A DNA stretch of 64,000 nt from a virus. Where the stretch lies: positions 64,412 through 128,411 of the IMG/VR virus record IMGVR_UViG_3300008266_000033, one strand, 5' to 3'. The notes under the pieces are model-generated. The model was given only the letters and a program-made list of their open reading frames with translations, ran no database searches and had not been told where the DNA came from. The first letter of the stretch is position 1; each line of letters starts with the position of its first letter. Below, piece by piece: positions 35,613 through 64,000 of the stretch. Both the position numbers and the translations under genes were made by a program.

Positions 35613-36593
35613 TTATTTTAATCCAGCTAATTTTTGCATTCTTGAGAATACATCATTAACTTCGATTATTGGTTGTTTTGTCTCTGGTTTTGAAATAACT
35701 TTAGAAGCTGAACCTAATGATTCTTTAATAGATGATTTGGTTTTGTTAGTATTTACCATTAAAGATTCATAAACTAGTTTTACTTCTTTTACATTTAATG
35801 CTTTATCAAAAGCACTTAAAACTTTAACTTTTTCAGACTCAGTCAATGATTTAGCTTTGAAAATCTTGTTGGTATAAAGAAGTTTTGCATTCAAAAGATT
35901 AATTTCGTTAAGTTCGCTTTTTAATGTTTTAATAACATCATATGCTTCTTTTAACTTTTCATCTTCTTCATCTTTTTTAGGAGCTGATTTTTTCTTATCT
36001 CTCATTGCTTGCATTTTCATCTTCATTGATTTTTCTTTTGCTGCTTCAGCTAAAAGTTCATCAATGCTGATTTCTTCTGCACCTCCCATTTCTTCTTCAC
36101 CACCCATTTCTGGTTGGCCACCTTCTAATTCTCCAGAAGCTACCATATCTTGAATTACATCTTCAATAAATTTGGTAAGATCTCCTTCTGACATGTCTTC
36201 GATGTTAAACTCTTCTTCAGTTTCCATTTCTTCGCCTTCTTCATCACCTTCGGCTTCGTAAAGTTCTTCTAAATCTTCACCTTCTTCCATTGGTTCTGAA
36301 TCTTTGTCTAATTCGGCTAGAAGTTCTTCTAAATCGAGTTCTCCTTCTTCCATTGATTCTTCGCCTTCTTCCATTTTCATATCGTCACCTTCATACATTT
36401 TTTCTTCATCCATGTACATGTTTTCTTCCATTTCATCCGCTTCATCTAATGCAGCGATTCTAGTGGCTAAGGTTTCTTTTAAAAATGGAGTAAAAGCTTC
36501 TTCTAAAGCAACTTTAGCTTGAGCTAATGCGGTTTCTTTTACTGCTTTGGCATCAGCGATAGCTTCTTTAAGCAGGTCTCTGTTTGATTCCAT
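35613..36593 (-). CDS. prohead core/scaffold protein (gp22-like)
   Basis: Very acidic and coiled-coil, many LxE sites, lies between protease and MCP, ends RMQKLAGLK. Confidence 0.8.
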   Translation of the reverse strand: MESNRDLLKEAIADAKAVKETALAQAKVALEEAFTPFLKETLATRIAALDEADEMEENMYMDEEKMYEGDDMKMEEGEESMEEGELDLEELLAELDKDSEPMEEGEDLEELYEAEGDEEGEEMETEEEFNIEDMSEGDLTKFIEDVIQDMVASGELEGGQPEMGGEEEMGGAEEISIDELLAEAAKEKSMKMKMQAMRDKKKSAPKKDEEDEKLKEAYDVIKTLKSELNEINLLNAKLLYTNKIFKAKSLTESEKVKVLSAFDKALNVKEVKLVYESLMVNTNKTKSSIKESLGSASKVISKPETKQPIIEVNDVFSRMQKLAGLK

Positions 36594-36790: not shown

Positions 36791-37435
36791 CTAATATAAT
36801 GGGCATGTGCCATTAGCACATAAAATTTCGGTAATTAATTTATTTACTTTATTATATGGGTTTATATCGGTAGATTTACCTTCGGCTAATTGAACTGTTT
36901 TCATCCAAGATCCTGGATTTGATGGGTTTGATACTGCGTCCCATGTTAATAAATCAAAATCATCTTGAACTTCCATTACTTCTCCTACTTGTTCCAATGA
37001 ACCCATACCACGAGAAGAAATTCCAAATAATAGTTTATTTTTTATATAGGCTCCTAAAATTCTTCCTGATACTGTACCATATTCACCTGGATCAGAAAAT
37101 ACTTCTAATATTCCTTTTACATGATCACCATCCCACCATATTTTTCTGATTGCATGAGAGCCATTTTTTAAATTGATGATTTGGCTATCAGGATGGTCTA
37201 ATTCTCCCACTGTTTCAGTGGTACCCATATTAATTTTTTGCTGGAATTTATTTAATTCTCTTTCCCAAAGTTCTTTTTTATAATAACGACCATTACCATT
37301 TTTTACCTCTACAGTGGCTAATACCCCTTCAACAAATATGTTTTTATTTGAAGATATATTACCTAATCCTTCTATTAATTTAATAGGAGGAGTAGTATAA
37401 GTGAATGGTTTGGTTTCTATTAATAATTCTTTCAT
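36791..37435 (-). CDS. prohead core protease (gp21-like)
   Basis: N.NGRYY, GELDHP, SH.I, GISSRG.GS, DF.L..WD.VS.PS. Confidence 0.95.
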   Translation of the reverse strand: MKELLIETKPFTYTTPPIKLIEGLGNISSNKNIFVEGVLATVEVKNGNGRYYKKELWERELNKFQQKINMGTTETVGELDHPDSQIINLKNGSHAIRKIWWDGDHVKGILEVFSDPGEYGTVSGRILGAYIKNKLLFGISSRGMGSLEQVGEVMEVQDDFDLLTWDAVSNPSNPGSWMKTVQLAEGKSTDINPYNKVNKLITEILCANGTCPLY

Positions 37436-47098: not shown

Positions 47099-47716
47099 TT
47101 ATTTATATTTCCATTTAAATCCAAAGGCAGTTTTTTGTCTTCCTAATATACAATCCTTTATTTGAGACATCAAGTTACTTGTTTTGCCTGTTTGTTCTTT
47201 TATCCATAAAGCTGCTTGACCTTTACTTTCCCATTCTTTAATAATATTACCATTTAAATCACATTGTAAAACAGGTTTAGCTTGTTTACGTTTAGCTATA
47301 CCCATATTTTTTGTATGTTCTTCTGTAAAGGGTTTTGGTTTTCCTTTATTACTTTTACTTATTTTAGTTTTAACTTCATCTGTATAATACTGAGAGTGGT
47401 TTCTTTCTTTTAATGTTTTACTTATTTTTTCCCCAGAACCTGGTCTTGGTTTTCTCATTTTTTGTTTTTGTTCTTCAGTATAGCTTGAAGGACCACCCCC
47501 ACCATTATTTTTATTTTCTAATTTGAATCCCCAACATTTAAACTGCTCTATCCAATAACTTTCCCAAAATTTCCAATCTTCAACTTCATCAATTATTTCT
47601 AATTTAATATTAGTTCCATATGTATTATAATGTTTGTGTTTACGTCTGATTGGATTTTTAGCCTTTCCAACATAAAATGGAACACCATCTCTTTCTAATA
47701 TATAAATTTTAGTCAT
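47099..47716 (-). mobile_element. free-standing GIY-YIG homing endonuclease with NUMOD DNA-binding repeats
   Basis: IYIL...FYVGK, E.YWI, L.NKN.GG.G, NUMOD3-like (TDEVKTKISKSNKGK), C-terminal NUMOD1-like (V.Q.DL.G..IKEW.S...A...G..KTA.GFKW). Confidence 0.85.
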
Positions 47717-47876: not shown

Positions 47877-50621
47877 TTATTTTTTAAGTCCTGCAATTTT
47901 TTGCATACGCAAAAATTCTTCAGATTTATTTTCTTTTAAATTATATTTGAAATTTGTTGTACCTGTAGAAGATGTGGTTCCTGAGGGTTTATTTTGAGGT
48001 GTTGTGGATGGGTTTTCTAAATTTTTATCTTTATTATATTCAGTAAATGCATCTCTTATAGCATTTTTTAATTTATTTGAATCTTTTTTTAAATTAGGTC
48101 CTAAAAAAGGAATTATTTCTCTTAATATTATTTGAATAGCACCTTCAGGTGTTTTTATATAACCAAATAAGGTTTTTAAATATCCATCTTTTACAATACT
48201 ATTAACAACATTTTGAGTATCTTTATTATCAATTTCTTGGATTCTATTTCTTAAACCTGTAAAAACAGATTGAATTTTTATATTATCTTGTTTTAAATCT
48301 TTATCAAGAGTATTAAAAATAGCTAATACTAATTCTTTAAATTCATCTTGAGTATCAATTTTAGACATATAATTTTTTAAACTTGTCCTTTGGGATATAG
48401 TGTCACCTATTTTATTAACAGCTGGTAAAGTTTTATTTTTATCTTGAAGTTTATCAAAATAACTTTTTTTAGTTTCACCTTTTCCTAAAAATACATAATT
48501 TCCTCCAGGTTGAGGATTAAATCCTATATCTTTAAGATCATTTTTTTCTTCATCAGATAATTCATCAGTATTTAATATACTTAAAGTATTATCTGCTTCA
48601 GAAGCATACATACTACCTAATAAAGCTAATAGTTGAACTTTTTTATTTTTTACATCATCATCTGATACCCCAAATTCATTAAATATATCATCAATCAGTG
48701 CTTCATTTAAGTAAAGTAATGTTTGATTTTTTATTTCTTGAAGTTTTTGAATTTGAGCTTGTGTGTCTTTACCTGGACGAGTTGATATTGCTTTGGCTCT
48801 AGGTTTTAATGTTACTCCTAAAATTCCTGAATATTTTTTGGTTAAACTATCAGGTGATTTTCTTAGGGTTATAATTAATTTAGCTAATTTTTTAGCTTTA
48901 TCTGATGTTTGATTACCTTTATAATCACCTTTAATAATATTATTTAAAGTAGTATCACTAAGATTAATAATATTTTTTTCACCTAATTCAGAATAAATAT
49001 TAAGTTCAGGACTAGTACGAGATAATACAAATCCTATTTGACCATTTCTATTAAATTTAGAAATATTTTCTACATCCTGTTTTATTTTACTAGGTTCAGG
49101 TGGAGGTATGTCAAGAATAATAGGTTTAGTTTCTTCTTCATCAGATTTAGGTTCATCAGATTTAGGTTTTTCTGGTTTTGGTTTTTCTCTAGGAGTTAAA
49201 TCAGGAGCTAAAAATTGATAATAAAGTAATTTTATTGGATCTCCTTGTTCAGAAGTTTCAATATCACTTTTTATTTTTTGAAATGAAGATTGGGTTTCTA
49301 AATTATCTTGAGCTTTTTGTATTTTTTGATCATCAATACCATCAGTAGTATTAACTTTCTTATATTTTATATTTACATCAAAATCTTCACCATATGTTTT
49401 TTTAATGAGTTTTTCTATTTTTTCACCAGCCGCTTTAGCTACTTTTTCAGATGAATCTAAACGTTTAGCATTTAAATCTCCTCCATCACCAGCTACATTA
49501 CTATCATCTCCTTGATTATGAGATACAGAAGAACCATAATCTATTTCTAAATCAATTTTAGATAATTTTTGACCTTTATTATCTTTAAATTTATTATTTA
49601 AGTCTTCTATTGTTTTTTTAACTAATTCATCTGATGCTTTATTTACATCATCTTCAGATAAATCTCCTTCACCAGTATCATATGTTTGAGCAGTAGTCGC
49701 ATTACTATCATCATCTGAAAAATCGATACCTTGAGTATCAACATTATTATTTTCAAGATTTTTTACTACTTGATCAGAATCTACAGTAATATCAACATCA
49801 CCCCCAGAAATTGGTTTAATAACTTCATCAGCATTTTGATCAAAATCTGAATCTTGGGATAAATCTAATACTCCTTGAATATCTTTATCAGCTAAAGCTC
49901 CACTAGGACCATATTCTCCTTCTACTGCTATATCGGCTGCTAAAGCTATAGTAGGAGCTGCTACTCCTTGTAATACAGAGGCCGCAGCTAAAATAGGCAT
50001 AAAAGTTTTAAAACCTTTAAGTAATCCTGGGAATTTTTTTCTTAGAAATTTTAAAACTCCTCCTTCTTGCGAATTGTCTGTGTATTTTTTATTTCTTAAT
50101 GAAACTATAGTAGGAGGAATTGATGCATCTTCAAGAGAATACCCTGACAATACTGTGTATGCTACTCCTGGTTGGAGACCTTGTTTCTTTTTTGATTTTT
50201 CATCAGCATTGATAAGTATTCCTTCATATTCAGCATCTGGAAGAGAATCTCCATCCCATTTAAATATATCTCCTGGTTCTAATTGATTTAATTGAGATAA
50301 TTCAGTAAATGAACCTTTATCTGCTTCTGATAAAGGTTTATTAGGTGTAATAATACTTTGAAAAGCTCTTAAAAAATCTTTAGAACTTTTAAAAACTTTT
50401 AATTTATTTAATTCTTTAAAAACTTCTTTAGGAGAATAACCAGCTTGTTTTATATCATCAAGAACATTTTTTATAAATTCTTTAGATTCAGGTTGAAGTT
50501 TTTGATAATTTTGTTGAATTTTATTATCTCCAGCAAATTCTAATAATATATCATTAGATTTAAATTCAATTCCTGCTAATTGTTGCATACGCAGAAATTC
50601 ACCATTTAAAGACTTCTCCAT
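47877..50621 (-). CDS. large putative internal/ejection protein with RMQ(K/Q)(L/I)AG at both termini
   Basis: EFLRMQQLAG (N-terminus) and EFLRMQKIAG (C-terminus); central hydrophobic stretch; several LxE sites. Confidence 0.7.
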   Translation of the reverse strand: MEKSLNGEFLRMQQLAGIEFKSNDILLEFAGDNKIQQNYQKLQPESKEFIKNVLDDIKQAGYSPKEVFKELNKLKVFKSSKDFLRAFQSIITPNKPLSEADKGSFTELSQLNQLEPGDIFKWDGDSLPDAEYEGILINADEKSKKKQGLQPGVAYTVLSGYSLEDASIPPTIVSLRNKKYTDNSQEGGVLKFLRKKFPGLLKGFKTFMPILAAASVLQGVAAPTIALAADIAVEGEYGPSGALADKDIQGVLDLSQDSDFDQNADEVIKPISGGDVDITVDSDQVVKNLENNNVDTQGIDFSDDDSNATTAQTYDTGEGDLSEDDVNKASDELVKKTIEDLNNKFKDNKGQKLSKIDLEIDYGSSVSHNQGDDSNVAGDGGDLNAKRLDSSEKVAKAAGEKIEKLIKKTYGEDFDVNIKYKKVNTTDGIDDQKIQKAQDNLETQSSFQKIKSDIETSEQGDPIKLLYYQFLAPDLTPREKPKPEKPKSDEPKSDEEETKPIILDIPPPEPSKIKQDVENISKFNRNGQIGFVLSRTSPELNIYSELGEKNIINLSDTTLNNIIKGDYKGNQTSDKAKKLAKLIITLRKSPDSLTKKYSGILGVTLKPRAKAISTRPGKDTQAQIQKLQEIKNQTLLYLNEALIDDIFNEFGVSDDDVKNKKVQLLALLGSMYASEADNTLSILNTDELSDEEKNDLKDIGFNPQPGGNYVFLGKGETKKSYFDKLQDKNKTLPAVNKIGDTISQRTSLKNYMSKIDTQDEFKELVLAIFNTLDKDLKQDNIKIQSVFTGLRNRIQEIDNKDTQNVVNSIVKDGYLKTLFGYIKTPEGAIQIILREIIPFLGPNLKKDSNKLKNAIRDAFTEYNKDKNLENPSTTPQNKPSGTTSSTGTTNFKYNLKENKSEEFLRMQKIAGLKK

Positions 50622-52167: not shown

Positions 52168-52934
52168 TTTGTTTTACCCCATTTTTTACCTTTACCAGGT
52201 GTTTTACATTGAGCGGGTGTAGGACGACATGAAGGATATTTAGCACGTTTTTCACCTTTTTGTCTACCACAAGGTTTACATTTACCATTGCGGCATGTAT
52301 TACAATCTACCCATCCACCTGTTTTACCAGGAGCACCTTTGCGTTTAAACCAGGTGCGCAGAGTTTCTTTTTGTGCTTCGGTTAATTCTTCTGTAACTAT
52401 TTTTTTATAACTATTTTTAATATTATTTATTCTTTTTAGCCATTCTTCTTTATAATTAATACCATTTGGAGCGGGTTTATCTGTTACAAATTGCTCAATT
52501 CTTGGTTCAATATAAATTAAAAAACCTCTTATTATACCTAATATAGATGAGAGCAGTTTTGGGTTGCTGGGAATATTATTGATATTATCTTTAAGAAAAT
52601 CAAAATAATTTTTACCATTTATTATTGGTTTTCTTAATTGTTGCATCATAAGAGTAAGTTCTTTAGTTGCATTTTCATCTTTTCCCATTTTAGTAATTTG
52701 ACTAAAATTAAGAGATATAAGTGTGCTAAAATCTACTAAAAAATCTTTAACCTCAGCAGGAGTAGATGCTTCTTTTAAATCTTTCCAGATTTTACCTTTA
52801 CGACACCTAACGATAGCACCTGATTTATAAGCAGAAGGTTTATCAAATTTGCGATCTGCAATACGTTTACAACGATCAGCTTTCTTTTTTTCTTCTAAAA
52901 GAATTTCATTTAATATATCAATAAGTTTTACCAT
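52164..52934 (-). CDS. modular Cys/basic protein with leader MVKLIDILNEILLEE
   Basis: Basic Cys module, then LKE, helical insert, LTE, and a second basic Cys module (WVDCNTC...KPCGR...YPSCRP). Confidence 0.75.
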   Translation of the reverse strand: MVKLIDILNEILLEEKKKADRCKRIADRKFDKPSAYKSGAIVRCRKGKIWKDLKEASTPAEVKDFLVDFSTLISLNFSQITKMGKDENATKELTLMMQQLRKPIINGKNYFDFLKDNINNIPSNPKLLSSILGIIRGFLIYIEPRIEQFVTDKPAPNGINYKEEWLKRINNIKNSYKKIVTEELTEAQKETLRTWFKRKGAPGKTGGWVDCNTCRNGKCKPCGRQKGEKRAKYPSCRPTPAQCKTPGKGKKWGKTK

Positions 52935-55900
52935 GATTTCTTTTGAGTAAAGAATTGAGTTAAATCTTTAGAAATTGTTTCTTTTAAATCACTTTCAACC
53001 ATTTTTAAATCATTCATACCATATACTCTTTGGTAAGATCTTTCTACATCAGCATATCCACCTTCAATACTATTATTATTTAATGTACTTTTTCCGGATA
53101 AGGTTTTAACTATTTTACCTTTATCATCAGATAATACCCATTTAGGATATAAAGTAGATCTTTCTTTATCAACAGGTAATAATGCATATGTGTTTGAACC
53201 ATCTTTTATAATAAAAGGTAATCCCCATATTAATGTAGCATATTCTGTATTTTGATCGTATTTTTCAGCTAATGTCATAATAGCTTTTCTTTCAGAATCG
53301 GATAAAGCAGTCCATTGAGAATATAACATTGGTCTAGGATCAATTTGCTGTTCAGGCATATCTGATAAATTTTCTAACTGTTCATCATCAATGTTAGTAT
53401 TGGCTTCATATTCCCAAGAATCAAATAATTTAGAATAAATTTCAAATAATTGCTTTAATTTAGGATCTTTAATATACTTGGATGCTTCTTTTGGTAAAAA
53501 GTCAAGATTTTTAATTTGTTTATTTACATAATCTGAGGTTACTTTTTCACCAAAGTATTTATCTAAATATTCATATGTTAAATATCCATCAAATGTATCA
53601 GCATACTTTTGTTTAGCGGCATCATCCAAATATTTTACATAAGGTAATGGAATTGGGTCTGCAGAATAATTAGTATGTCTAAATCTGAAAACTGCATATC
53701 GTTTTGCTAATGCTTCATTATCCTTTAAGGCAGAATATGAGAATTTTTGTCCACTATCGATAGCAACATTAGCTAATGTGGTTGATCTACCTTCTAAATT
53801 AATTTTATATTTAGGTAAGATAGCTAAAATATCAGGAGTAATTGCATTTTTAGAGGCTTTACCTTGAATATAGAGAATTTTTTCATCTTGAGTTAATTCT
53901 TTAAATTCATCTAAAGTTAAGTTTTTACCCGAAGCAAATTTTCTACCTCTTTCAACTGGTGATAAAGCAATTGGTTTAAAGTAATCTTTTAAATCTTTAA
54001 TTTTAGCCCATGTATCAGGAGGTACTATTTTTTCTATACCTTCCCAACCATTAGCACGTATATCACCTCTATTATTAGCTCCTGTAACAATATATGTTTT
54101 ACCATCTGCTGTTACTTGAATTACAAAAGCATGCCATTGATCATCAAAGCTTCCTTTAGGACCAGATGATGGTTTATTTCTATCAAATACAAAATAGAAT
54201 GTAGGTGATTGATCACCAAATCTATAATAATCATAATTTGTGTTTCCTATTTGAGTAACACACCACCCGTATTTTTTCGTACCTTTTTCTACTGGATTGT
54301 AAGAAATACATTTATGTACATCATCTCCTTTATAGATTTCTATTCCGTTTTTATCATAGATTTTATCAGCATCTGTAGATACTGTATTTTCTTCTCCTTC
54401 TACTGATTTTCCTGCTGCAGGAAATAATGCATCCATCATTTGTTCAAATGGTTCCCATGTCCAATTTCTAGGGTCTAGGTATGCATTGTTAATCATTAAA
54501 CGTTTAGGAACAAATTGATCTATATCTTCTTTTGATATGGTACTTCCTTCTTGTCCAGCAAATTTTAAATCATCTTTTTTGGTCATGAAGCGAGCTACAT
54601 AAGATTGAGCTGTATTTCTATCAATTCCTTCTTTTTCAACAAACTTTTTTATTGCTTCTTTTTTAGCTTTTTCTGGGTTTTCAGGGATTGAGGCAATTAA
54701 TTTAATCATATCCTCAAATGAGTATTGGTTAATATCTAAGTATTTGTTACTCTTTTTTAATTCATCTGGTAGAACAACTATATCTAATTTTTGTGCTAAT
54801 GAACCTTTAATTTGATCAAAACGTTGAATCAATTGTTTTGCAGCATTTTGATCATATCCTTTTTCATCTTTCCAACGATCAAGAGTAGCATTAATTACTT
54901 TATCACTATATTCATTTAATTGATCAGGTTCAGCATTATCATTAATTTTTAATGCTTGTAAAATTTGTTCTTTGGTAGCATTTCCATCAGCAAATATCTT
55001 ACTGTCATCTATATTTTTTTCATCAGGATCAGGTAATCTTAAAGCTTTTCCTGATTTAAAATACTTACTATAAATATATAGTTGACCAGCTTGTGGATTT
55101 TCTGTTTGAGTTTGAGCTATTAATATAGGTTCTCCTTTGTAATAAGATAATACAAAAGTAGATCTCATACTTCTAACATAATCACCATCACCTTTTATCC
55201 ATCCTACCCAAGTTTCTTTAGGTTCAATTCCTAATTTATTAAAAACACTTAAAACTCTTTGTCTAGTTCTATTATCAACATTTTTACCATAGAAAGAAAC
55301 TGAGGCTCCTACTCTTCCTTTAGAAACATCATATTTTCCTATTTTTAAATCTAAAACGGGGAATGAGCTAGGATCTTTAATTTTACTACTAGGTGCTTTT
55401 ACTCTAATTTCATCTAAACCTGTTGCGCTAAAGTCATCTGATTTTAAATCAACAGTAATATCTCTTAAAGTATCTTTAACCCATTTTTGTTGTGATGGAG
55501 TTAATTCTTCGTTTATTGCGTTTTCTATAAATAAAATAAATTCATCATCATCTAATTGATATACTTCTTGGAAAAAGAATTCTCTAGCTCTTAAATCATC
55601 AGAAAGTCCACTATCAATAAAAGCATTATTTAAAGCATCAAAAATGAATTTACCATAACGAATATCTGATGGTTCGTTTTTAAGTAAATCTACTTTATCA
55701 ACTACTGCTTGATTAGCTTCTTTATCTCCTTTAAATCCTTGTAATGAAATTAATTCATATAAACCTTTAATTAATTCGTGAACTAACATTGGAAAACAAA
55801 TTGCACGAGCTTTAATTGTAATACCTGAATCTGCTTCGATTATTTGGCTTTCAGTTAAAATATTTTTTATTTTATCTTCAATCTCATTTTTAAAATCTTC

Positions 55901-56644
55901 AAAACCTTCTTCATCATCACTAAAAAAGAATTTTTCCCAAACTAAATTATTTATTGCGTCTTCAGATTTAAGTTTAACAATAGTATTAATGATTTCATCA
56001 TAATATTCATTATTTTCATCATCATCCTCATCTTGCAATGATTTAAAATAATCTATAACTGCTTGTCTATAATATTTAAATCTATTAGGAACTAGAACTT
56101 CAATTTCTTTCATAATTACTTTAGAAGAACCACCAGCCATTTTTTGTCCTTGTGCTAACATAGACAAAAACATAGCTATTGCGTTTTCATCATCATAAAC
56201 ACCAAATACTTTTTTCATTATTTGGTTGTAATTTTCTACTAATGATGGATCTAAATCATCTAAATGTTCTTTAAATAAATAGAATGCAAATGCCCCACGC
56301 AATGCAGCACCTTGTGTAATTGCGTTAGTAATACGACGACGAGATTCTGGTGAAAGGGCTTCATCTAATTCTCTTCCTACCTCAGCCATATCCACTATTT
56401 TAGCATCTAAAACAATACCTTCTTGATCAATGATAGGGTAAAGTTCTTTAACCATATCTACAGCTAATTGTTCTAACTGTGCTTTATATGGTGCTTCTGC
56501 TCTAATGATTTGAGATAACAATCGTTGAGAAGACATCATAGCCTGCATGAGATTTTCATTACCTAACATATCTTTTAGGTTCTCTGAAGACTTTTTATTT
56601 AATTTTTGTAATGTTTTAGAGCTAAAAAAATCTTTGTATTCCAT
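52928..56644 (-). CDS. large modular protein (putative polyprotein)
   Basis: 1238 aa; junctions IMKEIEVLVP, ILTE/IIE, GLDEIRVKAP, QLNE, DLKE. Confidence 0.75.
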   Translation of the reverse strand: MEYKDFFSSKTLQKLNKKSSENLKDMLGNENLMQAMMSSQRLLSQIIRAEAPYKAQLEQLAVDMVKELYPIIDQEGIVLDAKIVDMAEVGRELDEALSPESRRRITNAITQGAALRGAFAFYLFKEHLDDLDPSLVENYNQIMKKVFGVYDDENAIAMFLSMLAQGQKMAGGSSKVIMKEIEVLVPNRFKYYRQAVIDYFKSLQDEDDDENNEYYDEIINTIVKLKSEDAINNLVWEKFFFSDDEEGFEDFKNEIEDKIKNILTESQIIEADSGITIKARAICFPMLVHELIKGLYELISLQGFKGDKEANQAVVDKVDLLKNEPSDIRYGKFIFDALNNAFIDSGLSDDLRAREFFFQEVYQLDDDEFILFIENAINEELTPSQQKWVKDTLRDITVDLKSDDFSATGLDEIRVKAPSSKIKDPSSFPVLDLKIGKYDVSKGRVGASVSFYGKNVDNRTRQRVLSVFNKLGIEPKETWVGWIKGDGDYVRSMRSTFVLSYYKGEPILIAQTQTENPQAGQLYIYSKYFKSGKALRLPDPDEKNIDDSKIFADGNATKEQILQALKINDNAEPDQLNEYSDKVINATLDRWKDEKGYDQNAAKQLIQRFDQIKGSLAQKLDIVVLPDELKKSNKYLDINQYSFEDMIKLIASIPENPEKAKKEAIKKFVEKEGIDRNTAQSYVARFMTKKDDLKFAGQEGSTISKEDIDQFVPKRLMINNAYLDPRNWTWEPFEQMMDALFPAAGKSVEGEENTVSTDADKIYDKNGIEIYKGDDVHKCISYNPVEKGTKKYGWCVTQIGNTNYDYYRFGDQSPTFYFVFDRNKPSSGPKGSFDDQWHAFVIQVTADGKTYIVTGANNRGDIRANGWEGIEKIVPPDTWAKIKDLKDYFKPIALSPVERGRKFASGKNLTLDEFKELTQDEKILYIQGKASKNAITPDILAILPKYKINLEGRSTTLANVAIDSGQKFSYSALKDNEALAKRYAVFRFRHTNYSADPIPLPYVKYLDDAAKQKYADTFDGYLTYEYLDKYFGEKVTSDYVNKQIKNLDFLPKEASKYIKDPKLKQLFEIYSKLFDSWEYEANTNIDDEQLENLSDMPEQQIDPRPMLYSQWTALSDSERKAIMTLAEKYDQNTEYATLIWGLPFIIKDGSNTYALLPVDKERSTLYPKWVLSDDKGKIVKTLSGKSTLNNNSIEGGYADVERSYQRVYGMNDLKMVESDLKETISKDLTQFFTQKKSW

Positions 56645-56645
56645 A

Positions 56646-56930
56646 TTATCGTATAAATATTCTATTTAATGTAAATAAGAATTCTTCTTCACCATATCCC
56701 ATATCTTCATATATTTTAGATATTTCTACTAAACTATTAACATCATCTGGGACTTCGCTTAGTGCTTGTTTAAAATCAGCTATATATTCTTCAGGATCTT
56801 CAAATTCAAGCTCTTCTGCTGTATCTGCCATATCTTGTACTAGAGCTGCTTTTAATGTATCTAACGAAACAGGAATAATCCCACCTGGGGATTTTACCTT
56901 AATTTCATTTAAAAGATCAACTAGTTTCAT
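56646..56930 (-). CDS. small acidic protein with leader MKLVDLLNEIKVKSP
   Basis: 94 aa; D/E-rich after the leader. Confidence 0.75.
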   Translation of the reverse strand: MKLVDLLNEIKVKSPGGIIPVSLDTLKAALVQDMADTAEELEFEDPEEYIADFKQALSEVPDDVNSLVEISKIYEDMGYGEEEFLFTLNRIFIR

Positions 56931-57163
56931 TTTGATAATTTTTTAAAGCGAGCAGCAATTTTTTTAGCCATTTCTTCTTCCTTCATCATAGCCTTTGGTC
57001 TAGGATTAGGAGCTTTATCTTTATCAGGAACTAAGGATCTACGTTTAGGTTTAGTTCCAGTTTCTTCTTTTTCTTTGGTTCCTGGTTTAGTTATAGTTTC
57101 GTTTTCTTTTAAAGAATTTAAAAGTTCTTCTTTAATAATTCTACGGAGTTCTGAAAGATTCAT
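56927..57163 (-). CDS. small protein with leader MNLSELRRIIKEE
   Basis: 78 aa; K/P/E-rich. Confidence 0.7.
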   Translation of the reverse strand: MNLSELRRIIKEELLNSLKENETITKPGTKEKEETGTKPKRRSLVPDKDKAPNPRPKAMMKEEEMAKKIAARFKKLSK

Positions 57164-57178
57164 AGTTTATTTGTTTTT

Positions 57179-57727
57179 TTATCCGAAATATTGATTTTCA
57201 AAATACAATACTTCAAAGTTATTAGATACGTTAATTAATTGGGCTGCGTTTAATAAATCAGCATATTCTGCTACTGATGTTTTTTGGATAATTCTTAATT
57301 CTTGTAAGAAATCAAAAGTAGCTAAATCTGCTGGAAATACTTCTGCTGAATTTGAGTTATATTTGGCAAATAGATCATATTCTAATTGATATGCTTTATT
57401 TACTACATCGATAAGATTAGAAAATACAGGAATCATTTTAACCGAAGGAATAACAGGCATTACATTCCAACTAGTTAAATAATTTTGTATTTTTTCAGCA
57501 TGAGTTAACTCATTATCTGCTTCTGCTTTAAAATAAGCTGCTGCTTTTTTATATGCTTTATCTTCACACCAGTTAGATGCGTTTCTATAGAAATAGTGAG
57601 CAGTATATTCGTCACCTATTCTTTCAATAAGCATTTTAGCTACTTCAGGTGATAAAGTTTTAGGAATTAAAACTTCTGATTGTGAAGCAGGTTGTATTTC
57701 GTTAAGTAAATTTAACTTATTATTCAT
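57179..57727 (-). CDS. ferritin-like protein
   Basis: E..A..FY....WC....Y..AA.YF..EA..E..HA.K..Y; E; D.AT.DFLQ....Q..EY ferroxidase pattern. Confidence 0.85.
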   Translation of the reverse strand: MNNKLNLLNEIQPASQSEVLIPKTLSPEVAKMLIERIGDEYTAHYFYRNASNWCEDKAYKKAAAYFKAEADNELTHAEKIQNYLTSWNVMPVIPSVKMIPVFSNLIDVVNKAYQLEYDLFAKYNSNSAEVFPADLATFDFLQELRIIQKTSVAEYADLLNAAQLINVSNNFEVLYFENQYFG

Positions 57728-57739
57728 ATCAATTTATTT

Positions 57740-58642
57740 TTACCAGTAACCACTAAAGTTTTTAGAACCACCCAAAGATTTCCAATATCTACCTATTCGG
57801 CAAGACCAATATGAGGCTTTAGTTCTATCTGTCTTTTGTGCACATTTGTGTCGTTTAGCAAAAGCATTTCTAGCTTTAGGATCATTTATTTTTGTTGATA
57901 AACCACCTGAATCTCCAAAAGATACTTTTCTAACTTTACCTTTATCCATTACATAAACATAGAATTTCTTACCTGAAGATCCTCCACGTTTTGGTTTACC
58001 AATTTGTACTTTTTTGCCTTGATATTCTGCTTCATTTAAATCTAATAAATGTTTATAATCATCATAAACATCATAATCTATTAAAATAGACATAATATTA
58101 TTTAAATCAAATTTAGGAGCAGAATATGCATCTAATAAATCTTGATATAAATCTGAATCAGGGCCCCAATCATTACTAACATAAGTTAGAATTTTTTCAT
58201 AAGGTACAGCAGATACCATATCAGCCATTTCTATATCTTCCATTCCTCCTAATGTATCTCCAAAAATGTCAAGAGTTTCTTCAATCATAGGCATATCTAA
58301 GGGTACTAATTTACCCTCATATAAACCATATTGACCTAAATCAGTTTCTAATATAATTTCTTTATCTAATCCTGATAAACTAACGGCATTGCGAGAATAT
58401 AAATAACGAGCTTCAGCCCATAAATCTAAAAATGATTTAGAGCCATATCGGAATGTGTTTTCAGTAAGCGGTTTTTTATTGTCTATATGATATTTCATAT
58501 TTTCGGTCATAACCACTTGCGCTTTTAAACCTTCATTTAATATAGGCGCTTTAGAACAACCACCACCACATCCACAACCACAGTCATGTTTTACATTTTG
58601 TTTTAATAAAACTTCTCTAATGATTTTTTTGATGTTTTCCAT
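57740..58642 (-). CDS. modular protein (CxCxC N-terminus; LNE-preceded basic C-terminal module)
   Basis: IKKIIREVLL leader; LNEAEYQGKKVQIGKP...KVSFGD...RHKC...YWSC. Confidence 0.75.
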   Translation of the reverse strand: MENIKKIIREVLLKQNVKHDCGCGCGGGCSKAPILNEGLKAQVVMTENMKYHIDNKKPLTENTFRYGSKSFLDLWAEARYLYSRNAVSLSGLDKEIILETDLGQYGLYEGKLVPLDMPMIEETLDIFGDTLGGMEDIEMADMVSAVPYEKILTYVSNDWGPDSDLYQDLLDAYSAPKFDLNNIMSILIDYDVYDDYKHLLDLNEAEYQGKKVQIGKPKRGGSSGKKFYVYVMDKGKVRKVSFGDSGGLSTKINDPKARNAFAKRHKCAQKTDRTKASYWSCRIGRYWKSLGGSKNFSGYW

Positions 58643-58653
58643 AATTATAAATA

Positions 58654-59787
58654 TTACTGTATTTTGACAAATTCTCCATCTATCAATTCATAAATATGGG
58701 TAGCTGAAGTTGCTATTTTTTTAGTTTGAACAATTGATTCATTGTGTTTTATTCCAAACATATTTCTATCATAACGATATGAAGCCACAAAATATGGATA
58801 GTAATCACCTTGAGGGATTTGTGGGGGTAATAAATAGTAAGGAGCAGATAAACTATATAAATTTTCTCCTTGAGGTATAAGTTGGATTTCTCCTTGTGTT
58901 ATAATGTTTACATTTTCTGATCCATAAGAATTACTTCCATATTCAGGACCATAAATTAATTTTCTGATTAAATTTTCATTCTTTACAGGAGCTATAAATT
59001 TTGTAGTATTAGGCATTCCTACTAAACCTTTATCAATAAGAAACTTTTTTAATTTTAAAATGAATTCTTCAACTTCAGGTTCATTTTCATATCTAGTAAA
59101 ACCACTCCATCTTATAAAATCACCTGCAGATGGTTCTGATCCTCCTGATTTTTTATGAGAGATAAAAATTTGAGGATTACTATCTTGATCAAATAAGAAA
59201 AAATCTGCTTTTGGTGTTTTAGGTTGAGTTGCAGCTCCTATAATATTATTATAAATTTGTCCTCCAACTATTATATTGATAGGTTCTCCATTATTTTGTT
59301 CAATACGAGTTTGAATTTTTTCTGAGAGTAATCTTAGATTATAATCTTCAACTTTTGTACCTGAGCCTTTGCCTTTACCTCCAAAATATGGATCTTTTAA
59401 TAAATCAGAAATACTATATTCTGTTCCTGAATCGTCTTTAAAAAACTTAAATAAATTTATATCTTTAGGGGAAAATAATTTTATTCTAGCATCTTCTGCT
59501 TTTTCAAAAGCCTCTTGATATTCAGGTTTTGAAAATTCTAAAGCAGTAGAACTTCCGTTAACTAATTCAAATGGAACTTTATTTTTAATTCTAGTGGCTA
59601 GATCTTTAAATCTATAACCTCCTCGTTTTTTTAAATCTCCAAATGATAGTTGCTTAAAAATTTCGTGTAAACCCATTTGTTCAAAAACTGATTCCAAAAT
59701 TAAGATATCCTGTTCATTATTCATGTCAGGATATCCTTTTGGAAATTTATATGCTATTTTATTTAAGAATGTATCTAAAATGTCCAT
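58654..59787 (-). CDS. putative PD-(D/E)xK-fold nuclease with N-terminal leader
   Basis: E.YNL...TPKADF...IFISHK; leader YKFPKGYPD...ILE...LHE. Confidence 0.5.
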   Translation of the reverse strand: MDILDTFLNKIAYKFPKGYPDMNNEQDILILESVFEQMGLHEIFKQLSFGDLKKRGGYRFKDLATRIKNKVPFELVNGSSTALEFSKPEYQEAFEKAEDARIKLFSPKDINLFKFFKDDSGTEYSISDLLKDPYFGGKGKGSGTKVEDYNLRLLSEKIQTRIEQNNGEPINIIVGGQIYNNIIGAATQPKTPKADFFLFDQDSNPQIFISHKKSGGSEPSAGDFIRWSGFTRYENEPEVEEFILKLKKFLIDKGLVGMPNTTKFIAPVKNENLIRKLIYGPEYGSNSYGSENVNIITQGEIQLIPQGENLYSLSAPYYLLPPQIPQGDYYPYFVASYRYDRNMFGIKHNESIVQTKKIATSATHIYELIDGEFVKIQ

Positions 59788-60299
59788 TATGCTGGTACTT
59801 CAGGTGTTTCTTCTTCTGGTGCTTCTTCTGGTGTTTCTGGTGGTGCTTCACCTGTTTCTTCTGGTGGTGTTTCACCTTCTCCTGGTTCTTTTTCAGGTTG
59901 TTCTGGGGCTGTAAAGTAAAGTAGTCTTGCTATTGCTTCGGCTGCTCTTTCTTCTTCATCTAAATTAAGTAAATAATATTTTTTACCTTCTACTTGAGCT
60001 ATCCAACTTCTATCAGTATGAATTATATAAAATAATTGGTTATTTTTTAATTCAATTTGAAAAGTGGTTGGTCTAGGAGCAATCCATGCTACATCTTCAA
60101 CAAATAAATTATAATTTGTGGTTAAAAGATCTATTAAAACTTGCTTTAATTCAGGAAACTTAGATAATATAGGTATAACATTATCATCTAGTGATATGTC
60201 TCCAGAATTTGGCATATCTAAATCTACGGACTTTTGTTTAGAAGACCAAACTTGCTTAACTAAAGTTTTAATTTTATCTTTTAATTCAGACTTAGTCAT
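59787..60299 (-). CDS. hypothetical protein with acidic Pro/Glu tail
   Basis: MTKSELKDKIK leader; EETPE repeats at the C-terminus. Confidence 0.7.
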   Translation of the reverse strand: MTKSELKDKIKTLVKQVWSSKQKSVDLDMPNSGDISLDDNVIPILSKFPELKQVLIDLLTTNYNLFVEDVAWIAPRPTTFQIELKNNQLFYIIHTDRSWIAQVEGKKYYLLNLDEEERAAEAIARLLYFTAPEQPEKEPGEGETPPEETGEAPPETPEEAPEEETPEVPA

Positions 60300-61108
60300 T
60301 ACTTACCTTTTAATTTAGAAATTACTTTTTCAGCTAGTTTCTTTTTATATTCATTAAGTACTGGTTCTTCATCAGAGTAATCTACATATTCCATAATGTA
60401 ATGCATAGGTTCACCTTGAGGTTCATCTTCACTTTGTAGATAATCAGAAACAGATTGTAAATAATCTTGAGCTTTAGTTAATTTGGATTGAACCCATGCA
60501 TCTAATTGTTCCCCATCATCTATAAGATTAGCTAATTTATCAACATTTTGCTTAATAGATGTTAATTGAGAATCAGCCATGCTTGATTCATCATTTTGTT
60601 GCATCCAATCATCTTCTTTAAGCATAGCTTTTTTAATAGCTAAATCTCTTGCAGCTAAATAATCTTTAGAATCAATTTTTCCATCAGGTTTTCCTTCAGG
60701 TCCTGTTAAATCTTTACCTTTTTTTTCAGGAATTGGTTTCATTAAAGCAGATTTAACTGCTTCTTTAATTTTTGATTGAGTTTCTTTTTTCATTGTACTT
60801 TTAGCTCTTTTTATTGAAGAACCTTTAGCCATTTTTTCAGCATCTTTACCATATTTACTAACTAATGATCTTTTATTAGTGGCGATCATAGCATTAAAAT
60901 ATTCTTGGGCTAATTCTTCTTCTTTATCAGATAAACCTTCAGAAACTTTAAGTGCTTTTTTAAGAGGTTTAATTGCTTTTTCTCTTTTTTTCTCTAAAGA
61001 TTTAGTTAATTTAGCTTTTTTGGCACCAGGTTGAGTTTGAGGTTTTCCTGTTTTAGCTAAATTAGTAGCTAAAGCATATGCTAACCCTGTTTTCTCTTTT
61101 TTTGTCAT
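60299..61108 (-). CDS. modular hypothetical protein
   Basis: Basic N-terminus, DGKIDSKDY, MA.SQL...L.AWVQSKLT.A.DYL; LKE/LNE linkers. Confidence 0.7.
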   Translation of the reverse strand: MTKKEKTGLAYALATNLAKTGKPQTQPGAKKAKLTKSLEKKREKAIKPLKKALKVSEGLSDKEEELAQEYFNAMIATNKRSLVSKYGKDAEKMAKGSSIKRAKSTMKKETQSKIKEAVKSALMKPIPEKKGKDLTGPEGKPDGKIDSKDYLAARDLAIKKAMLKEDDWMQQNDESSMADSQLTSIKQNVDKLANLIDDGEQLDAWVQSKLTKAQDYLQSVSDYLQSEDEPQGEPMHYIMEYVDYSDEEPVLNEYKKKLAEKVISKLKGK

Positions 61109-61530
61109 TACATTTCTTCGTCTGAGGAAATCTGAGTTCTGGTGAAATAAGTTAAAACATTACCTATTTGTCTAGTAAGTTTTTTATCTCCTAATTTTTT
61201 AGATGCTTTTAGAGCTTGCATTAACTCTTTTTGAACTTGTTCAGGAGTAGTTAATTCAGTATCTCCTTCATCATCCATAGGCATTTCATCAGCAGGCATT
61301 TCTTCTGGTGCTTCTTCAGCAGGCATTTCTTCTTCTGCTGGTACTTCTTCTTCTGCTTTTTTGGCCTCTTCTAATTCATCTTCAGGAGTTTCCATTTCCT
61401 TAAGAATCATTTCTTTAATTTTAGCTTTTAAAGAAGATTTAGTATATGTTTCTTGCATTTCTTCCTCAGGCATAAAACCTTCTGTTAATATACCTGCAAG
61501 TTTTTGCATTCTTTTAATATCTAAGCTCAT
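61108..61530 (-). CDS. acidic scaffold-like protein with N-terminal RMQKLAG
   Basis: MSLDIKRMQKLAGILTE; SSLKAKIKEMILKE. Confidence 0.75.
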   Translation of the reverse strand: MSLDIKRMQKLAGILTEGFMPEEEMQETYTKSSLKAKIKEMILKEMETPEDELEEAKKAEEEVPAEEEMPAEEAPEEMPADEMPMDDEGDTELTTPEQVQKELMQALKASKKLGDKKLTRQIGNVLTYFTRTQISSDEEM

Positions 61531-61557
61531 AATATTTTTATTTTATTTATAAATATG

Positions 61558-62172
61558 TTATTTTTTTAAAAAAGTATCTAGTATAGTTCCAATAGAGCCT
61601 ACCTTTTGTCTAACAAATATAGATTCTTCATTATTTAATCGTCTGTGGGCTTTATTAAAGGAAATACCTAATAAAGCTACAAACCTTCCACTTAAATCAT
61701 CAATAGCATAAAAATATAGTGATTCACCAGGAATATCTGTAAATGAATGTAGATTATATTCTTCAGTAGCAGTTTTAGTTAAAATTTCTAAATTTCCCTC
61801 TTTATAAACTCTAGATAATAATTTAGGAAATAACGATACTGGAATATTATGAAATGTATCTGTTATAGAATGAGTTTGTGGAGAGGTTTTTTCAAAAAAT
61901 ATTGAGAATTTTTGAATTGATTTTCCTGTAGGGTAAAAATGACCTCCATTGTGGAATTGAGCTATCCATATTCTATCACACTCAATAATCTCCATTATAT
62001 TATGAAGTTGCTGATCAATTAAATTATTATTATCAATAGATTCTTTTAAAGGATCATATTTTTTAGCTATTTTTTCTCTAAACCAGGCTACTACCATAGG
62101 TCCAATAACAGCAGTTATTAGAGCAACAAATATAGTAACCCACTGTTGAGTAACTACAAATAAATTAATCAT
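61558..62172 (-). CDS. putative holin (single N-terminal TM plus GAF-like domain, T4 T-like)
   Basis: TIFVALITAVIGPMVVAWF, then CDRIWIAQFHNG GAF-like pattern. Confidence 0.55.
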   Translation of the reverse strand: MINLFVVTQQWVTIFVALITAVIGPMVVAWFREKIAKKYDPLKESIDNNNLIDQQLHNIMEIIECDRIWIAQFHNGGHFYPTGKSIQKFSIFFEKTSPQTHSITDTFHNIPVSLFPKLLSRVYKEGNLEILTKTATEEYNLHSFTDIPGESLYFYAIDDLSGRFVALLGISFNKAHRRLNNEESIFVRQKVGSIGTILDTFLKK

Positions 62173-62178
62173 GTTAGG

Positions 62179-62751
62179 TTAGGTTTTTTTGAGGTTTTGT
62201 AAGTATTTGATTGTCTCTTCTTTACTTTCAAGTAACCTTTGTTTTGAAGAACCTATCCATCTTTCAACATCTCCAGCTTCGGTAATGTATGATTGATTAG
62301 ATTCATTTATTAAATCCTCCATCCAGGATTCAAAATCAACTATTAAATTATCAATGTCATTATTGATTATATTTTTTTCATATTCATCCCATAAACCTAG
62401 TCTTCTTAATTCTGTTTCAAACTCAATTTGACAACCATAACATCTTTTATACTGGATGTAAAATGGTTTATCGTATTTGTGTTTCATTAGCTTATTACAG
62501 CTAGTACAGAACAAGGGAAAAGAGGCAGATTTTTTAGCAGTATCTAATTTGGTAAAATTTTGTTTAATACCATTTTTAATGGTCCATTTTCTACCATCTT
62601 CTTCCCAAACATCACCTTCTTTATGAGATTCTTCTTTTTTTGTATAACCTACTCCAGAAGTAGAACGTTCCCCATATTTACCTTGAACTAAATTACGAAG
62701 GCGCTGGATGTCTTTCTTTTGGAATTCTTTCTTTAAAACTGATTCTGACAT
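62179..62751 (-). CDS. hypothetical Zn-ribbon protein
   Basis: C..C (CTSC) and CYGC; EGDVWEE.G..W.IKNGIK. Confidence 0.7.
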   Translation of the reverse strand: MSESVLKKEFQKKDIQRLRNLVQGKYGERSTSGVGYTKKEESHKEGDVWEEDGRKWTIKNGIKQNFTKLDTAKKSASFPLFCTSCNKLMKHKYDKPFYIQYKRCYGCQIEFETELRRLGLWDEYEKNIINNDIDNLIVDFESWMEDLINESNQSYITEAGDVERWIGSSKQRLLESKEETIKYLQNLKKT

Positions 62752-62756
62752 TGGAG

Positions 62757-63137
62757 TTATTTTTTCTTATTCATTGGGGTTTCCCCTTTTAATTTAGCAA
62801 TTCTTTCCTTAGCGGCTTTAGCTTTTTCAGAAATTTCTTTTTTAGTACTTCTGTAGCTTTCCATTTCAGTTTCTAATTCATTTAATTGAGATTCAAACTC
62901 TTTGAGTAATTCATTAGCTGTTCTATTAGCTTCTGATCTATTTTTATATACTCCGTGAGTTTCATCTTTATTAATTTCATCAAAAACTGTAACTTCACAA
63001 ACCATATCTTCTTTAGCCATTCCCATTTTAGGACGTTTTACTTGATAAACCTTTCCAATATCATCATATACTTCATATTGGGGTTCGGTTTCTTCTAATA
63101 TTTCTAAAATAAGTGATTTTAATTGTGACAGTTTCAT
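62757..63137 (-). CDS. hypothetical protein with leader MKLSQLKSLILEILEE
   Basis: 126 aa; late motif at 63155-63164. Confidence 0.72.
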   Translation of the reverse strand: MKLSQLKSLILEILEETEPQYEVYDDIGKVYQVKRPKMGMAKEDMVCEVTVFDEINKDETHGVYKNRSEANRTANELLKEFESQLNELETEMESYRSTKKEISEKAKAAKERIAKLKGETPMNKKK

Positions 63138-63170
63138 AATTATTATATTTTTATTTATAAATATATATTT

Positions 63171-64000
63171 TTAACGAGAAGGTTCGTTATATATTACATT
63201 TCCTTTATCATACAAATCTTTTAATACATTTAAATCTCGTTTTGAAAGTGAACCTATAAAAGGATAAAATTCATCTTTTACAACTTGATTTTTTGGTATT
63301 AAAATAATAAATGGTTGGTCTCCATAGGGTAGAAATGTATAATAAGGACCTAAATCAACCAATTCTAATGTATAATCTGCTTTAAAAACATCAGTATCTA
63401 TGATAGCTTTGCATCTATGAATTTTTCCTGTATCAAAATCAAGACTAGAGGGTTTGTTTATCTTAATTTCCTGTAAACCATCTATATCTTTAAGTAGATT
63501 TTTAGGATCTTCAATTGTAAAATATTCTTTTGTAAGTCTAGTAAAATACTCTCCAGATAAATTGTAAGAAAATCTATTTAACATTCCCGTAGGAGGACCA
63601 ACAACTAATTGTTGTGGTAATTCATTTTTTATTTTTTCAAATATTTCAGGTTTAAGAGTTACAAGAATATTTGGTCCTATAGATTGATATGTTTTAGAAC
63701 AACAAAGATCAGAAATAGAACGATCTGTTAATTTCATTCCTTTATAAGAAATAGTTCCTGAAAACATTCCTGGATATTTTTCAGGATTAACAGCATGTTC
63801 AACTGTATAAACTAATAATCCTGAGGGTCGTTTTATAGAAATTTCATCTATATTATATTTTTTATAGTATTTATCTAAGATAGGAGAATTAATATATTGT
63901 TTAAATATTTTTAGTAAAGTTACTTTTTTATTTCCAGGGGCTCGTTTTAAAGCATCTTTTATAACCTCATCATCGAATTTAGCAATAACATCTCCTGCTT
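63171..64000 (-). CDS. modular protein (putative polyprotein), 5' end outside the window
   Basis: Frame is open from the window edge (AGDVIAKFDD...); junctions NIDEISIKRP and GLQEIKINKP. Confidence 0.7.
   Translation of the reverse strand, partial: AGDVIAKFDDEVIKDALKRAPGNKKVTLLKIFKQYINSPILDKYYKKYNIDEISIKRPSGLLVYTVEHAVNPEKYPGMFSGTISYKGMKLTDRSISDLCCSKTYQSIGPNILVTLKPEIFEKIKNELPQQLVVGPPTGMLNRFSYNLSGEYFTRLTKEYFTIEDPKNLLKDIDGLQEIKINKPSSLDFDTGKIHRCKAIIDTDVFKADYTLELVDLGPYYTFLPYGDQPFIILIPKNQVVKDEFYPFIGSLSKRDLNVLKDLYDKGNVIYNEPSR

Follow-up and report, generated by a model that had tools for sequence, protein, structure and literature searches.

What purpose is served by a short peptide that recurs at the borders of otherwise unrelated protein domains? 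This question is raised by virus record IMGVR_UViG_3300008266_000033, of which a stretch of 64,000 nucleotides (positions 64,412 to 128,411), below called the window, was analysed. This window makes up the latter half of one contig of 128,411 bp with a G+C content of ~30 % and with nearly all genes on the minus strand. Read from its genes, the source is a distant T4-like myovirus of marine flavobacteria: its major capsid protein, a Gp23 family member (Pfam), shares 57 % identity with the counterpart of Flavobacterium phage immuto, and there are genes for portal, large terminase, sheath and a protease of the gp21 type (PHROG/Pfam matches). The original prediction for this locus held that three genes code for polyproteins made of cassettes, joined by a peptide of the type xE-I-x-(V/I)-x-x-P and released by a protease. 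The reading favoured here, to which we give a probability of roughly one half, is that these are cargo polyproteins targeted to the phage head, which would be cut at every joint.

Across all six frames of the window, the pattern [LIMV]xE[IV]x[VI]xxP is matched exactly five times, in each case within real minus-strand open reading frames (ORFs). Shuffling of residues within ORFs (69 minus-strand ORF segments of at least 60 amino acids (aa), 21,259 aa in total) yields 0.20 ± 0.46 matches, and not one of 2000 shuffles reached five. All junctions claimed earlier were recovered, at coordinates that had been right within a few bases. The count of five junctions in three genes holds for the window; a relaxed pattern finds 29 junction copies on the whole contig, most of them just beyond the window, and the third gene is cut by the contig end. 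The blocks following the five window junctions measure 90, 163, 85, 125 and 98 aa and are, as had been claimed, unrelated (best pairwise BLAST E 0.036); in two cases the block is strongly acidic (net charge -15 and -13). A database search with the 1238-aa protein encoded in the window gave 174 relatives at E <= 0.001, of which the best 120 were listed, ranging from 681 to 1967 aa. These 120 hold 253 junctions, with at least one junction in 89 of them, and the median piece from junction to junction measures 125 aa. The consensus derived from 259 instances reads L-(D/N/K)-E-I-K-(V/I)-N-(K/N)-P; Lys was present in 205 and Asn in 174 of these, though the search pattern demanded neither. The motif strings had no match in the literature searched, and no description of the joint was found in papers on Imm5 and polyimmunity, polyvalent proteins, capsid targeting, immuto or T4-type internal proteins, subscription journals lying outside the scope of that search. 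The usual coding sequence of the joint, GAA ATT AAA RTA AAx, carries TAA in both other frames (29 contig junctions).

The modular nature of these proteins is clearest in the 1238-aa protein (Table 1). Its homologues are not colinear and differ by whole cassettes of 60-250 aa. A search for anchor sequences covered 51 proteins (that of the window and P0001-P0050), and the borders could be parsed at site A/B in 13 proteins, at B/C in 27 and at C/core in 22, giving 7 + 23 + 22 = 52 inserts. In fifty of the 52, (L/I)xE is directly followed by the start of the insert, I-x-(V/I)-x-x-P (the other two have IKFQKP and IKVNKF), and 51 end in (L/I)xE right before the carrier resumes, the remaining one in VxE. 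Because of these counts, which come from homologues related to one another and are not independent events, (L/I)xE is seen to delimit both cassette ends, even where no IKVNxP follows. Some right borders are shortened junction copies, for example LNEIKVNE·AESG and INENKINE·ADSG (a raised dot marks the border after Glu). The acidic cassette of the window protein ends in I-I-E directly before the hub restarts with ADSGITI, and homologues free of an insert read SKVIINE·ADSGITIKARA without interruption across the B/C site, which bears out the claim that the acidic block interrupts a continuous domain. At the Junction 2 site further cassettes are added in homologues, each bringing its own junction copy. 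An AlphaFold2 model of aa 1-575 (50 aligned sequences, mean predicted local distance difference test score (pLDDT) 69.8) has pLDDT <50 at aa 94-99, 180-185, 266-272 and 405-421, which are the cassette insertion points, and the flanking domains are confident: the acidic insert is a helical bundle with pLDDT ~85, and aa 422-536 of cassette D reach ~90. The junctions are thus modelled as linkers and not inside folded domains, and the indels of the homologues begin exactly at the xE·I border that had been predicted.

Table 1 Features of the cassette system and of the genes discussed with it (window positions unless marked C1; a raised dot marks the border after Glu)
Feature	Position	Strand	Remarks
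1238-aa cassette protein	52928..56644	(-)	conserved hub in three blocks, one inserted cassette, one following, 663-aa core
Hub blocks			A aa 1-95, B aa 96-180, C aa 271-412; from BLAST against 120 listed homologues and alignment A1
Junction 1, V-I-M-K-E·I-E-V-L-V-P	56087..56116	(-)	aa 177-186; left border of acidic cassette
Acidic cassette	55835..56104	(-)	aa 181-270, net charge -15; inserted between hub blocks B and C
Junction 2, G-L-D-E·I-R-V-K-A-P	55391..55420	(-)	aa 409-418; hub end
Cassette D	54920..55408	(-)	aa 413-575; alpha/beta domain, ends Q-L-N-E ahead of core
Conserved core	52931..54919	(-)	aa 576-1238; AlphaFold mean pLDDT 83.8
94-aa stand-alone cassette gene	56646..56930	(-)	leader, junction and acidic 85-aa body, net charge -13
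Leader of 94-aa gene, M-K-L-V-D-L-L-N-E	56904-56930
Junction of 94-aa gene, L-L-N-E·I-K-V-K-S-P	56886-56915
78-aa gene	56927..57163	(-)	homologue fused to cassette D via junction in other phages
275-aa 3' part of cassette protein	63171..63998	(-)	5' part lost at contig end
Junctions of 275-aa part	63825-63854; 63450-63479		N-I-D-E·I-S-I-K-R-P; G-L-Q-E·I-K-I-N-K-P
Cassettes of 275-aa part	63468-63842; 63174-63467
Five matches of the strict pattern	56886-56912; 56087-56113; 55391-55417; 63450-63476; 63825-63851
Genes for 136 aa and 256 aa	51757..52934	(-)	two genes; leader M-(I/V)-K-L-I-(N/D)-I-L-(S/N)-E
140-aa acidic protein	61108..61530	(-)	leader M-S-L-D-I-K-R-M-Q-K-L-A-G-I-L-T-E, motif 61492-61512
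Prohead protease, T4 gp21 family	36791..37435	(-)	Pfam Peptidase_S77 (PF03420), PHROG 207 head maturation protease
Putative scaffold, 326 aa	35613..36593	(-)	very acidic, 15 (L/I)xE sites; between protease and major capsid protein
1795-aa array	C1:4611-9998 (locus L001)		just past window end; start M-N-E-I-K-V-K-R-P, 17 junction-delimited cassettes
123-aa gene, then 500-aa gene			after 1795-aa array; MKLINLLSE·IKIQPP, one junction; MNEIKILKP, 4 junctions

The domains brought together in one chain are unrelated: in the 1238-aa protein hub and core are accompanied by a helical insert and an alpha/beta cassette, and homologues have Imm5-like and NUDIX domains linked to the same cassettes. The 1238-aa protein as a whole belongs to no Pfam or PHROG family. 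For the core likewise no Pfam or PHROG family and no PDB sequence match were found, Foldseek gave none against PDB at E <= 0.001, and the best VIA-align match had Z 5.1. BFVD returned solely unnamed phage proteins, and an Atlas search, in which homologue P0072 and not the window sequence was the query, returned hypothetical viral clusters only.

Modules occur both free and fused. Related viral loci were not found with the single 1238-aa protein as query; a search with alignment A2 yielded 23 of them, which are the related contigs referred to below. Many phages encode the core by itself, preceded by a 6- to 15-residue leader that ends in (L/I)xE·YS(D/E)K, these free forms starting M(I/K)(K/S)LxxILxE·YS(D/E)K. 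Cassette D is found free as proteins of 159-183 aa with leaders MDNFDLKKYLxNNPLLNE·, MKEIQLKQLIKEILDE· or MISLLNILNE·, and fused behind the homologue of the 78-aa gene (P0123), behind a NUDIX domain (P0137), ahead of the hub (P0142) and behind a hub without core (P0139). The module of the 78-aa gene is N-terminal to cassette D in P0123 and C-terminal to it in P0137. The last cassette of the window is free as P0156 (115 aa, MIKFSNILKE·IKITPH...) and present in at least 8 other architectures, and three related contigs encode, as a free protein of 182 aa, a match to one of the internal cassettes of the 500-aa protein. The claim that cassettes exist free and fused therefore stands for the blocks behind GLDE·IRVKAP and GLQE·IKINKP; for the 94-aa gene the search turned up no longer relatives, which is weak evidence. 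Chains can be long, with 11 modules in one homologue and up to 17 in this genome.

The tripeptide (L/I)xE also ends short N-terminal leaders. In the window, leaders of ~10 aa with an L/I-x-E end are MKLVDLLNE·, MIKLINILSE· and MVKLIDILNE·, and the 94-aa gene, at whose N-terminus the junction had been noticed, begins with a 9-residue leader followed by that junction. A strict leader is present in 5 of 171 ORFs here, compared to 0.37 in shuffles. A looser definition captures 22 of 162 ORFs versus 8.0 ± 2.7, among them those for the putative scaffold, for the protease and for a core-position protein with the start MKTLQEQYNLILE·G, which is encoded between protease and portal. Homologues of the 136-aa and 256-aa genes in related contigs carry the same leader. 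The strict 10-residue leader was found in 58 of 380 distinct Met-started ORFs of the related contigs, with an Ile-type junction next in 15 of them; in L016-L018 the leader is followed by the Tyr variant E·YKVNKP. Five ORFs of the related contigs start with just MNE·IKVNKP. T4 ipII and ipIII (NC_000866) start MKTYQEFIAE·A.

Another type of leader shares its sequence with the scaffold. The 326-aa protein is a putative scaffold by position and composition, and its C-terminus reads ...F-S-R-M-Q-K-L-A-G-L-K (motif 35622-35642). R-M-Q-K-L-A-G recurs at or near the N-terminus of the 140-aa protein, of a 914-aa protein (47877-50621) and of one ORF in the first half of the contig; the 914-aa protein carries it at both ends (47889-47909, 50571-50591). 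In related contigs six ORFs start ...RMQQLAGI(N)E·, with the junction directly after in five of the six (e.g. RMQQLAGINE·IKV). In phage P22 the C-termini of the scaffold bind capsid protein, and by analogy the R-M-Q-K-L-A-G peptide may bind capsid protein here. The immuto protein at the scaffold position ends ...SRWQKLAGIIK, so that the motif is terminal in both scaffolds examined. The immuto gene between protease and capsid protein is annotated 'DNA polymerase phi-like protein' (L027 7725-8966; NC_055915 125626-126867); it probably codes for a scaffold, because its product starts MSNKDLLKQAIAEAK, as does the scaffold of the present phage. Immuto proteins with leaders start MIKLIDLLTE, MISIYNILKE and MKKQILSEQFRRMQKLAGIITE.

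An enzyme of a family with a suitable cutting rule is encoded in the window. The prohead protease matches PF03420 (E 5.3e-24; 85 bits, the cut-off being 27); it shares 28 % identity with JS10 gp21 and its N-terminal E-L-L-I-E is conserved. The gp21 enzyme cuts C-terminal to Glu after L/I-X-E, and the first 10 residues of IPIII are a capsid-targeting sequence (PMC9026906, here and below from the part of its text available). Of the prediction that the arrays are released by a protease it can be said that the S77 gene is encoded, that (L/I)xE at the insert borders agrees with the gp21 rule, and that such release would be consistent with the data.

In the favoured reading a module is a small domain of ~60-250 aa, starting I-K-(V/I)-N-x-P and ending (L/I)-x-E, which may stand alone behind a short targeting leader, be strung together with others, or be inserted in surface loops of the conserved hub-and-core carrier. 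The leaders would bring these proteins into the assembling prohead, one being a 10-residue amphipathic peptide with the length and hydrophobic pattern of the T4 capsid-targeting sequence, another copying the C-terminal R-M-Q-K-L-A-G of the phage's own scaffold. There the S77 prohead protease would cut after Glu at each (L/I)-x-E, removing the leaders and freeing the modules, which would be small enough to pass through the tail together with the DNA. Once inside the host, some of the modules, at least, may neutralise defence or toxin proteins, Imm5-like domains being present in homologue cassettes. The uniform joint would provide a short shared sequence for cassette exchange between genes and phages.

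A number of observations weigh against this proposal. The joint is most strongly conserved on the side after the cut (I-K-V-N-x-P), which the gp21 rule does not require, and the residue following Glu is bulky (Ile; Tyr in some lineages). Leader-type sites have a small residue there (E·A in T4 ipII/ipIII, LKE·A in the scaffold and LIE·T in the protease of this phage). Cutting at both insert borders would break the conserved hub into three pieces. In immuto, the nearest cultured relative, no junction was matched by DNA pattern and none in ORFs, though leaders are present; a cultured phage with the junction was not identified. Fused forms of the 94-aa cassette were not found among longer proteins, which is weak evidence. 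Joint copies of this genome share a GAAATTAAA(R)TAAA core, and position 6 of the joint is ATA or GTA in 26 of 29 contig copies compared to a genome background of roughly 0.4-0.5; this bias points to recent duplication or gene conversion, so that copies within the genome are not independent. Packaging, cleavage, injection and an anti-defence function are moreover all steps that we infer. Finally, when the contig ends are joined in silico the frame stays open and a tail-fibre-like ORF of 600 aa (C1:1-1801) is fused to the last window ORF; if the ends were truly joined, two junctions would sit at the end of a tail-fibre-like protein, beyond the reach of the prohead protease.

The closest homologues of the 275-aa part (P0144, 81 % identity; P0145; P0146) extend upstream into a module absent from the contig. 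The circular join was dropped, all three upstream-extending homologues carrying a different module that the contig lacks. No relative of the fibre was found in the 23 related loci, and a DLP_6 fibre match, lying in the interior of a 1775-aa protein, is uninformative on completeness. The end of the contig coincides exactly with a module border, as though the assembly had broken off where cassette content varies.

Among the alternatives, the one that survives best, although we consider it rather unlikely, is that the joint is an uncut linker between the domains of long multi-domain chains, kept as a recombination adaptor or as a standard spacer. The disorder predicted at the junctions suits a spacer equally well, and the inserts lie in hub loops where cleavage would take the hub apart. 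The shortened junction copies at right borders are as expected from recombination within the motif, the copies of this genome have their GAAATTAAA(R)TAAA core and unusual codon choice in common, and shuffling at short motifs is known in T4-type phages (PeSL cassettes, in the available part of PMC2839356). Stand-alone proteins, however, also keep the motif, at their extreme N-terminus and with no preceding domain to be linked, and right borders retain (L/I)xE where the rest of the motif is gone. A pure spacer would moreover leave unexplained the leaders that end in the same tripeptide and the leader with the scaffold motif. The DNA level was addressed with 97 junctions of the 23 related contigs, in which synonymous usage is near background (GTA 40, GTT 14; ATA 19, ATT 15). 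Because synonymous sites vary at about background rate in these contigs, selection appears to act on the joint peptide, which speaks against the uncut linker. A nucleotide recombination or translation signal as the main constraint was rejected, the codon bias of the own genome being absent from the 23 related contigs. The idea that cassettes are shuffled by recombination at conserved junction codons is plausible, but the motif is held at the protein level.

The proposal of head-targeted, cut cargo can be carried further, tentatively and with less confidence than its core. The joint may constitute a plug-and-play delivery standard in a marine T4-like clade, in which any small protein flanked by joints would become head cargo, whether led by one of a few targeting peptides or carried along within a carrier protein, and be released by the protease, and phages would trade modules and inject their own mix of inhibitors, immunity-type proteins directed at host toxins among them, before phage gene expression. 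One leader would mimic the capsid-binding tail of the scaffold, and joint dialects would result from co-evolution with the protease site. Such genome-specific dialects were observed: Tyr follows Glu in all 14 junctions of L016 and in all 12 of L018, and in L010-L012 I-T is the usual form. Such dialects would be produced by a shared trans-acting reader, and equally by gene conversion.

An appreciably less probable explanation is that the joints are cut by another protease, either a peptidase domain of the polyprotein itself or a host enzyme, before packaging or after injection. Attention is drawn to the hub, in which the element F-P-M-L-V-H-E-(L/I)-I-K-G-L-Y-E (aa 284-297; window 55750-55800) follows a beta-strand and has invariant His, Glu, Lys, Gly and Glu; it is invariant in 45 of the 45 sequences listed, the window protein and 44 homologues. 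It is reminiscent of the active-site helix of zincins, with Lys replacing the second His. Fold searches with the hub repeatedly gave weak matches to zinc carboxypeptidases of the M32 family (3hq2_B, Z 5.9 across 188 residues; 5e3x, Z 5.4; 5giv, Z 5.2), and processing by an own zincin-like peptidase has been proposed for polyvalent phage proteins (PMC5512222, in the part of its text available). The metagenomic relatives P0145 and P0147 are junction-bearing polyproteins with an HExxH segment (HEMIH, HEIVH) in a conserved module of ~100 aa without Pfam family. These Z values are, however, below the noise level of the tool, no PDB match to the hub was found by sequence or by Foldseek, and the hub has HExxK, with Lys where a zincin needs its second His. 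A relation between hub and P0145 was not found by hhalign, nor a Pfam family in the hub or a Pfam peptidase in P0145 and P0147, and most junction-bearing proteins have neither the hub nor an HExxH domain.

It is very improbable that I-K-V-N-x-P is the first beta-strand of a diverged repeat domain and the cassettes one old repeat family: 10 cassettes of the 1795-aa array fall into three paralogous families (5 + 3 + 2) and many cassettes of this array begin with a strand-like ...P-x-x-F-x-F-E-V, but the cassette folds differ (helical bundle, alpha/beta, Imm5-like helical), the five window blocks are mutually dissimilar, the motif is modelled as disordered and clustering leaves 37 of 55 groups as singletons.

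What the cassettes do is hinted at by a single functional label. Imm5 or Imm5_like domains score above the Pfam cut-offs in cassettes of homologues P0016, P0015, P0051 and P0147, and DUF6931 domains are also present in homologue cassettes. Imm5-like is the sole label obtained for any cassette, and was obtained in homologues: in this genome one cassette of the 1795-aa array scores 15.9 and 14.9 bits for Imm5/Imm5_like (PF14423, PF21805) against a cut-off of 25, and the window proteins give no score. The acidic insert has generic fold matches only (death-fold bundles, Z 6.5) and cassette D weak ones to BLIP-like and cystatin-like proteins (Z 5.2-6.3), all under the noise limit of the tool. That acidic cassettes might act as DNA mimics is a guess.

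Four known systems come closest. The T4 internal proteins (IPI, IPII, IPIII, Alt) likewise depend on an S77 family protease and have a leader of ~10 residues ending (L/I)xE; they are small, often acidic cargo whose genes lie apart from those of the head, and one of them, IPI*, is injected and counteracts restriction (PMC9026906). Here, by contrast, modules are also concatenated (up to 17 per chain) and inserted in a carrier domain, the joint has 9 residues of which the conserved part lies after the predicted cut, and at least three leader types exist, one of them common to the scaffold C-terminus; the system is known from sequence alone. Polyvalent proteins of phages and conjugative elements (Iyer et al. 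2017, PMC5512222) are also large, with unrelated conflict-related domains, predicted packaging in the head and possible cutting. What defines them is the presence of known enzyme domains (among others MuF, ADP-ribosyltransferase and zincin-like peptidase), while the modules here are mostly small orphan domains. A standard junction peptide seemingly is not part of their description ('linker' has 0 occurrences in the available text of PMC5512222), whereas here a fixed joint stands at every border. The inner-body and ejection proteins of giant phages (phiKZ, 201phi2-1, SPN3US) share cuts after Glu, a diverged gp21 homologue and several sites per propeptide, but their motif is S/A-x-E with no other determinants given, and the substrates are individual paralogous proteins instead of cassette strings (PMC9026906). 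Polyimmunity proteins of polymorphic toxin systems (Zhang et al. 2012, PMC3482391) also unite unrelated immunity domains in one polypeptide, and the Imm5 type occurs among the homologue cassettes. They are cellular, and the part of the source available reports no standard joint or leader, whereas the present system belongs to a lytic-type myovirus and has a minority of its cassettes assigned to families. Neither a fixed joint at every module border nor cassettes inside a carrier domain were described for these four systems, as far as covered by the texts available in the literature searched.

If the joints are cut, they would amount to a readable sequence code for the proteins that abundant marine phages load and inject. 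Hundreds of orphan mini-domains would then be candidate counter-defence proteins of the first minute, and leader, joint and cargo would be a natural design rule for loading T4-like capsids. Even if uncut, the locus is an unusually clear case of shuffling at the level of domains, with borders marked exactly in the sequence and including domains inserted into loops of another.

Two neighbouring genes may be mentioned. A gene for a GIY-YIG-type homing endonuclease (47099-47716; PHROG 314, E 9.5e-10) is situated between the head module and the leader-rich region. At 57179-57727 a ferritin-like protein is encoded (PF00210, E 1.2e-17) with the leader-like start MNNKLNLLNE·I; should the leaders direct proteins to the head, a ferritin would be among the packaged cargo.

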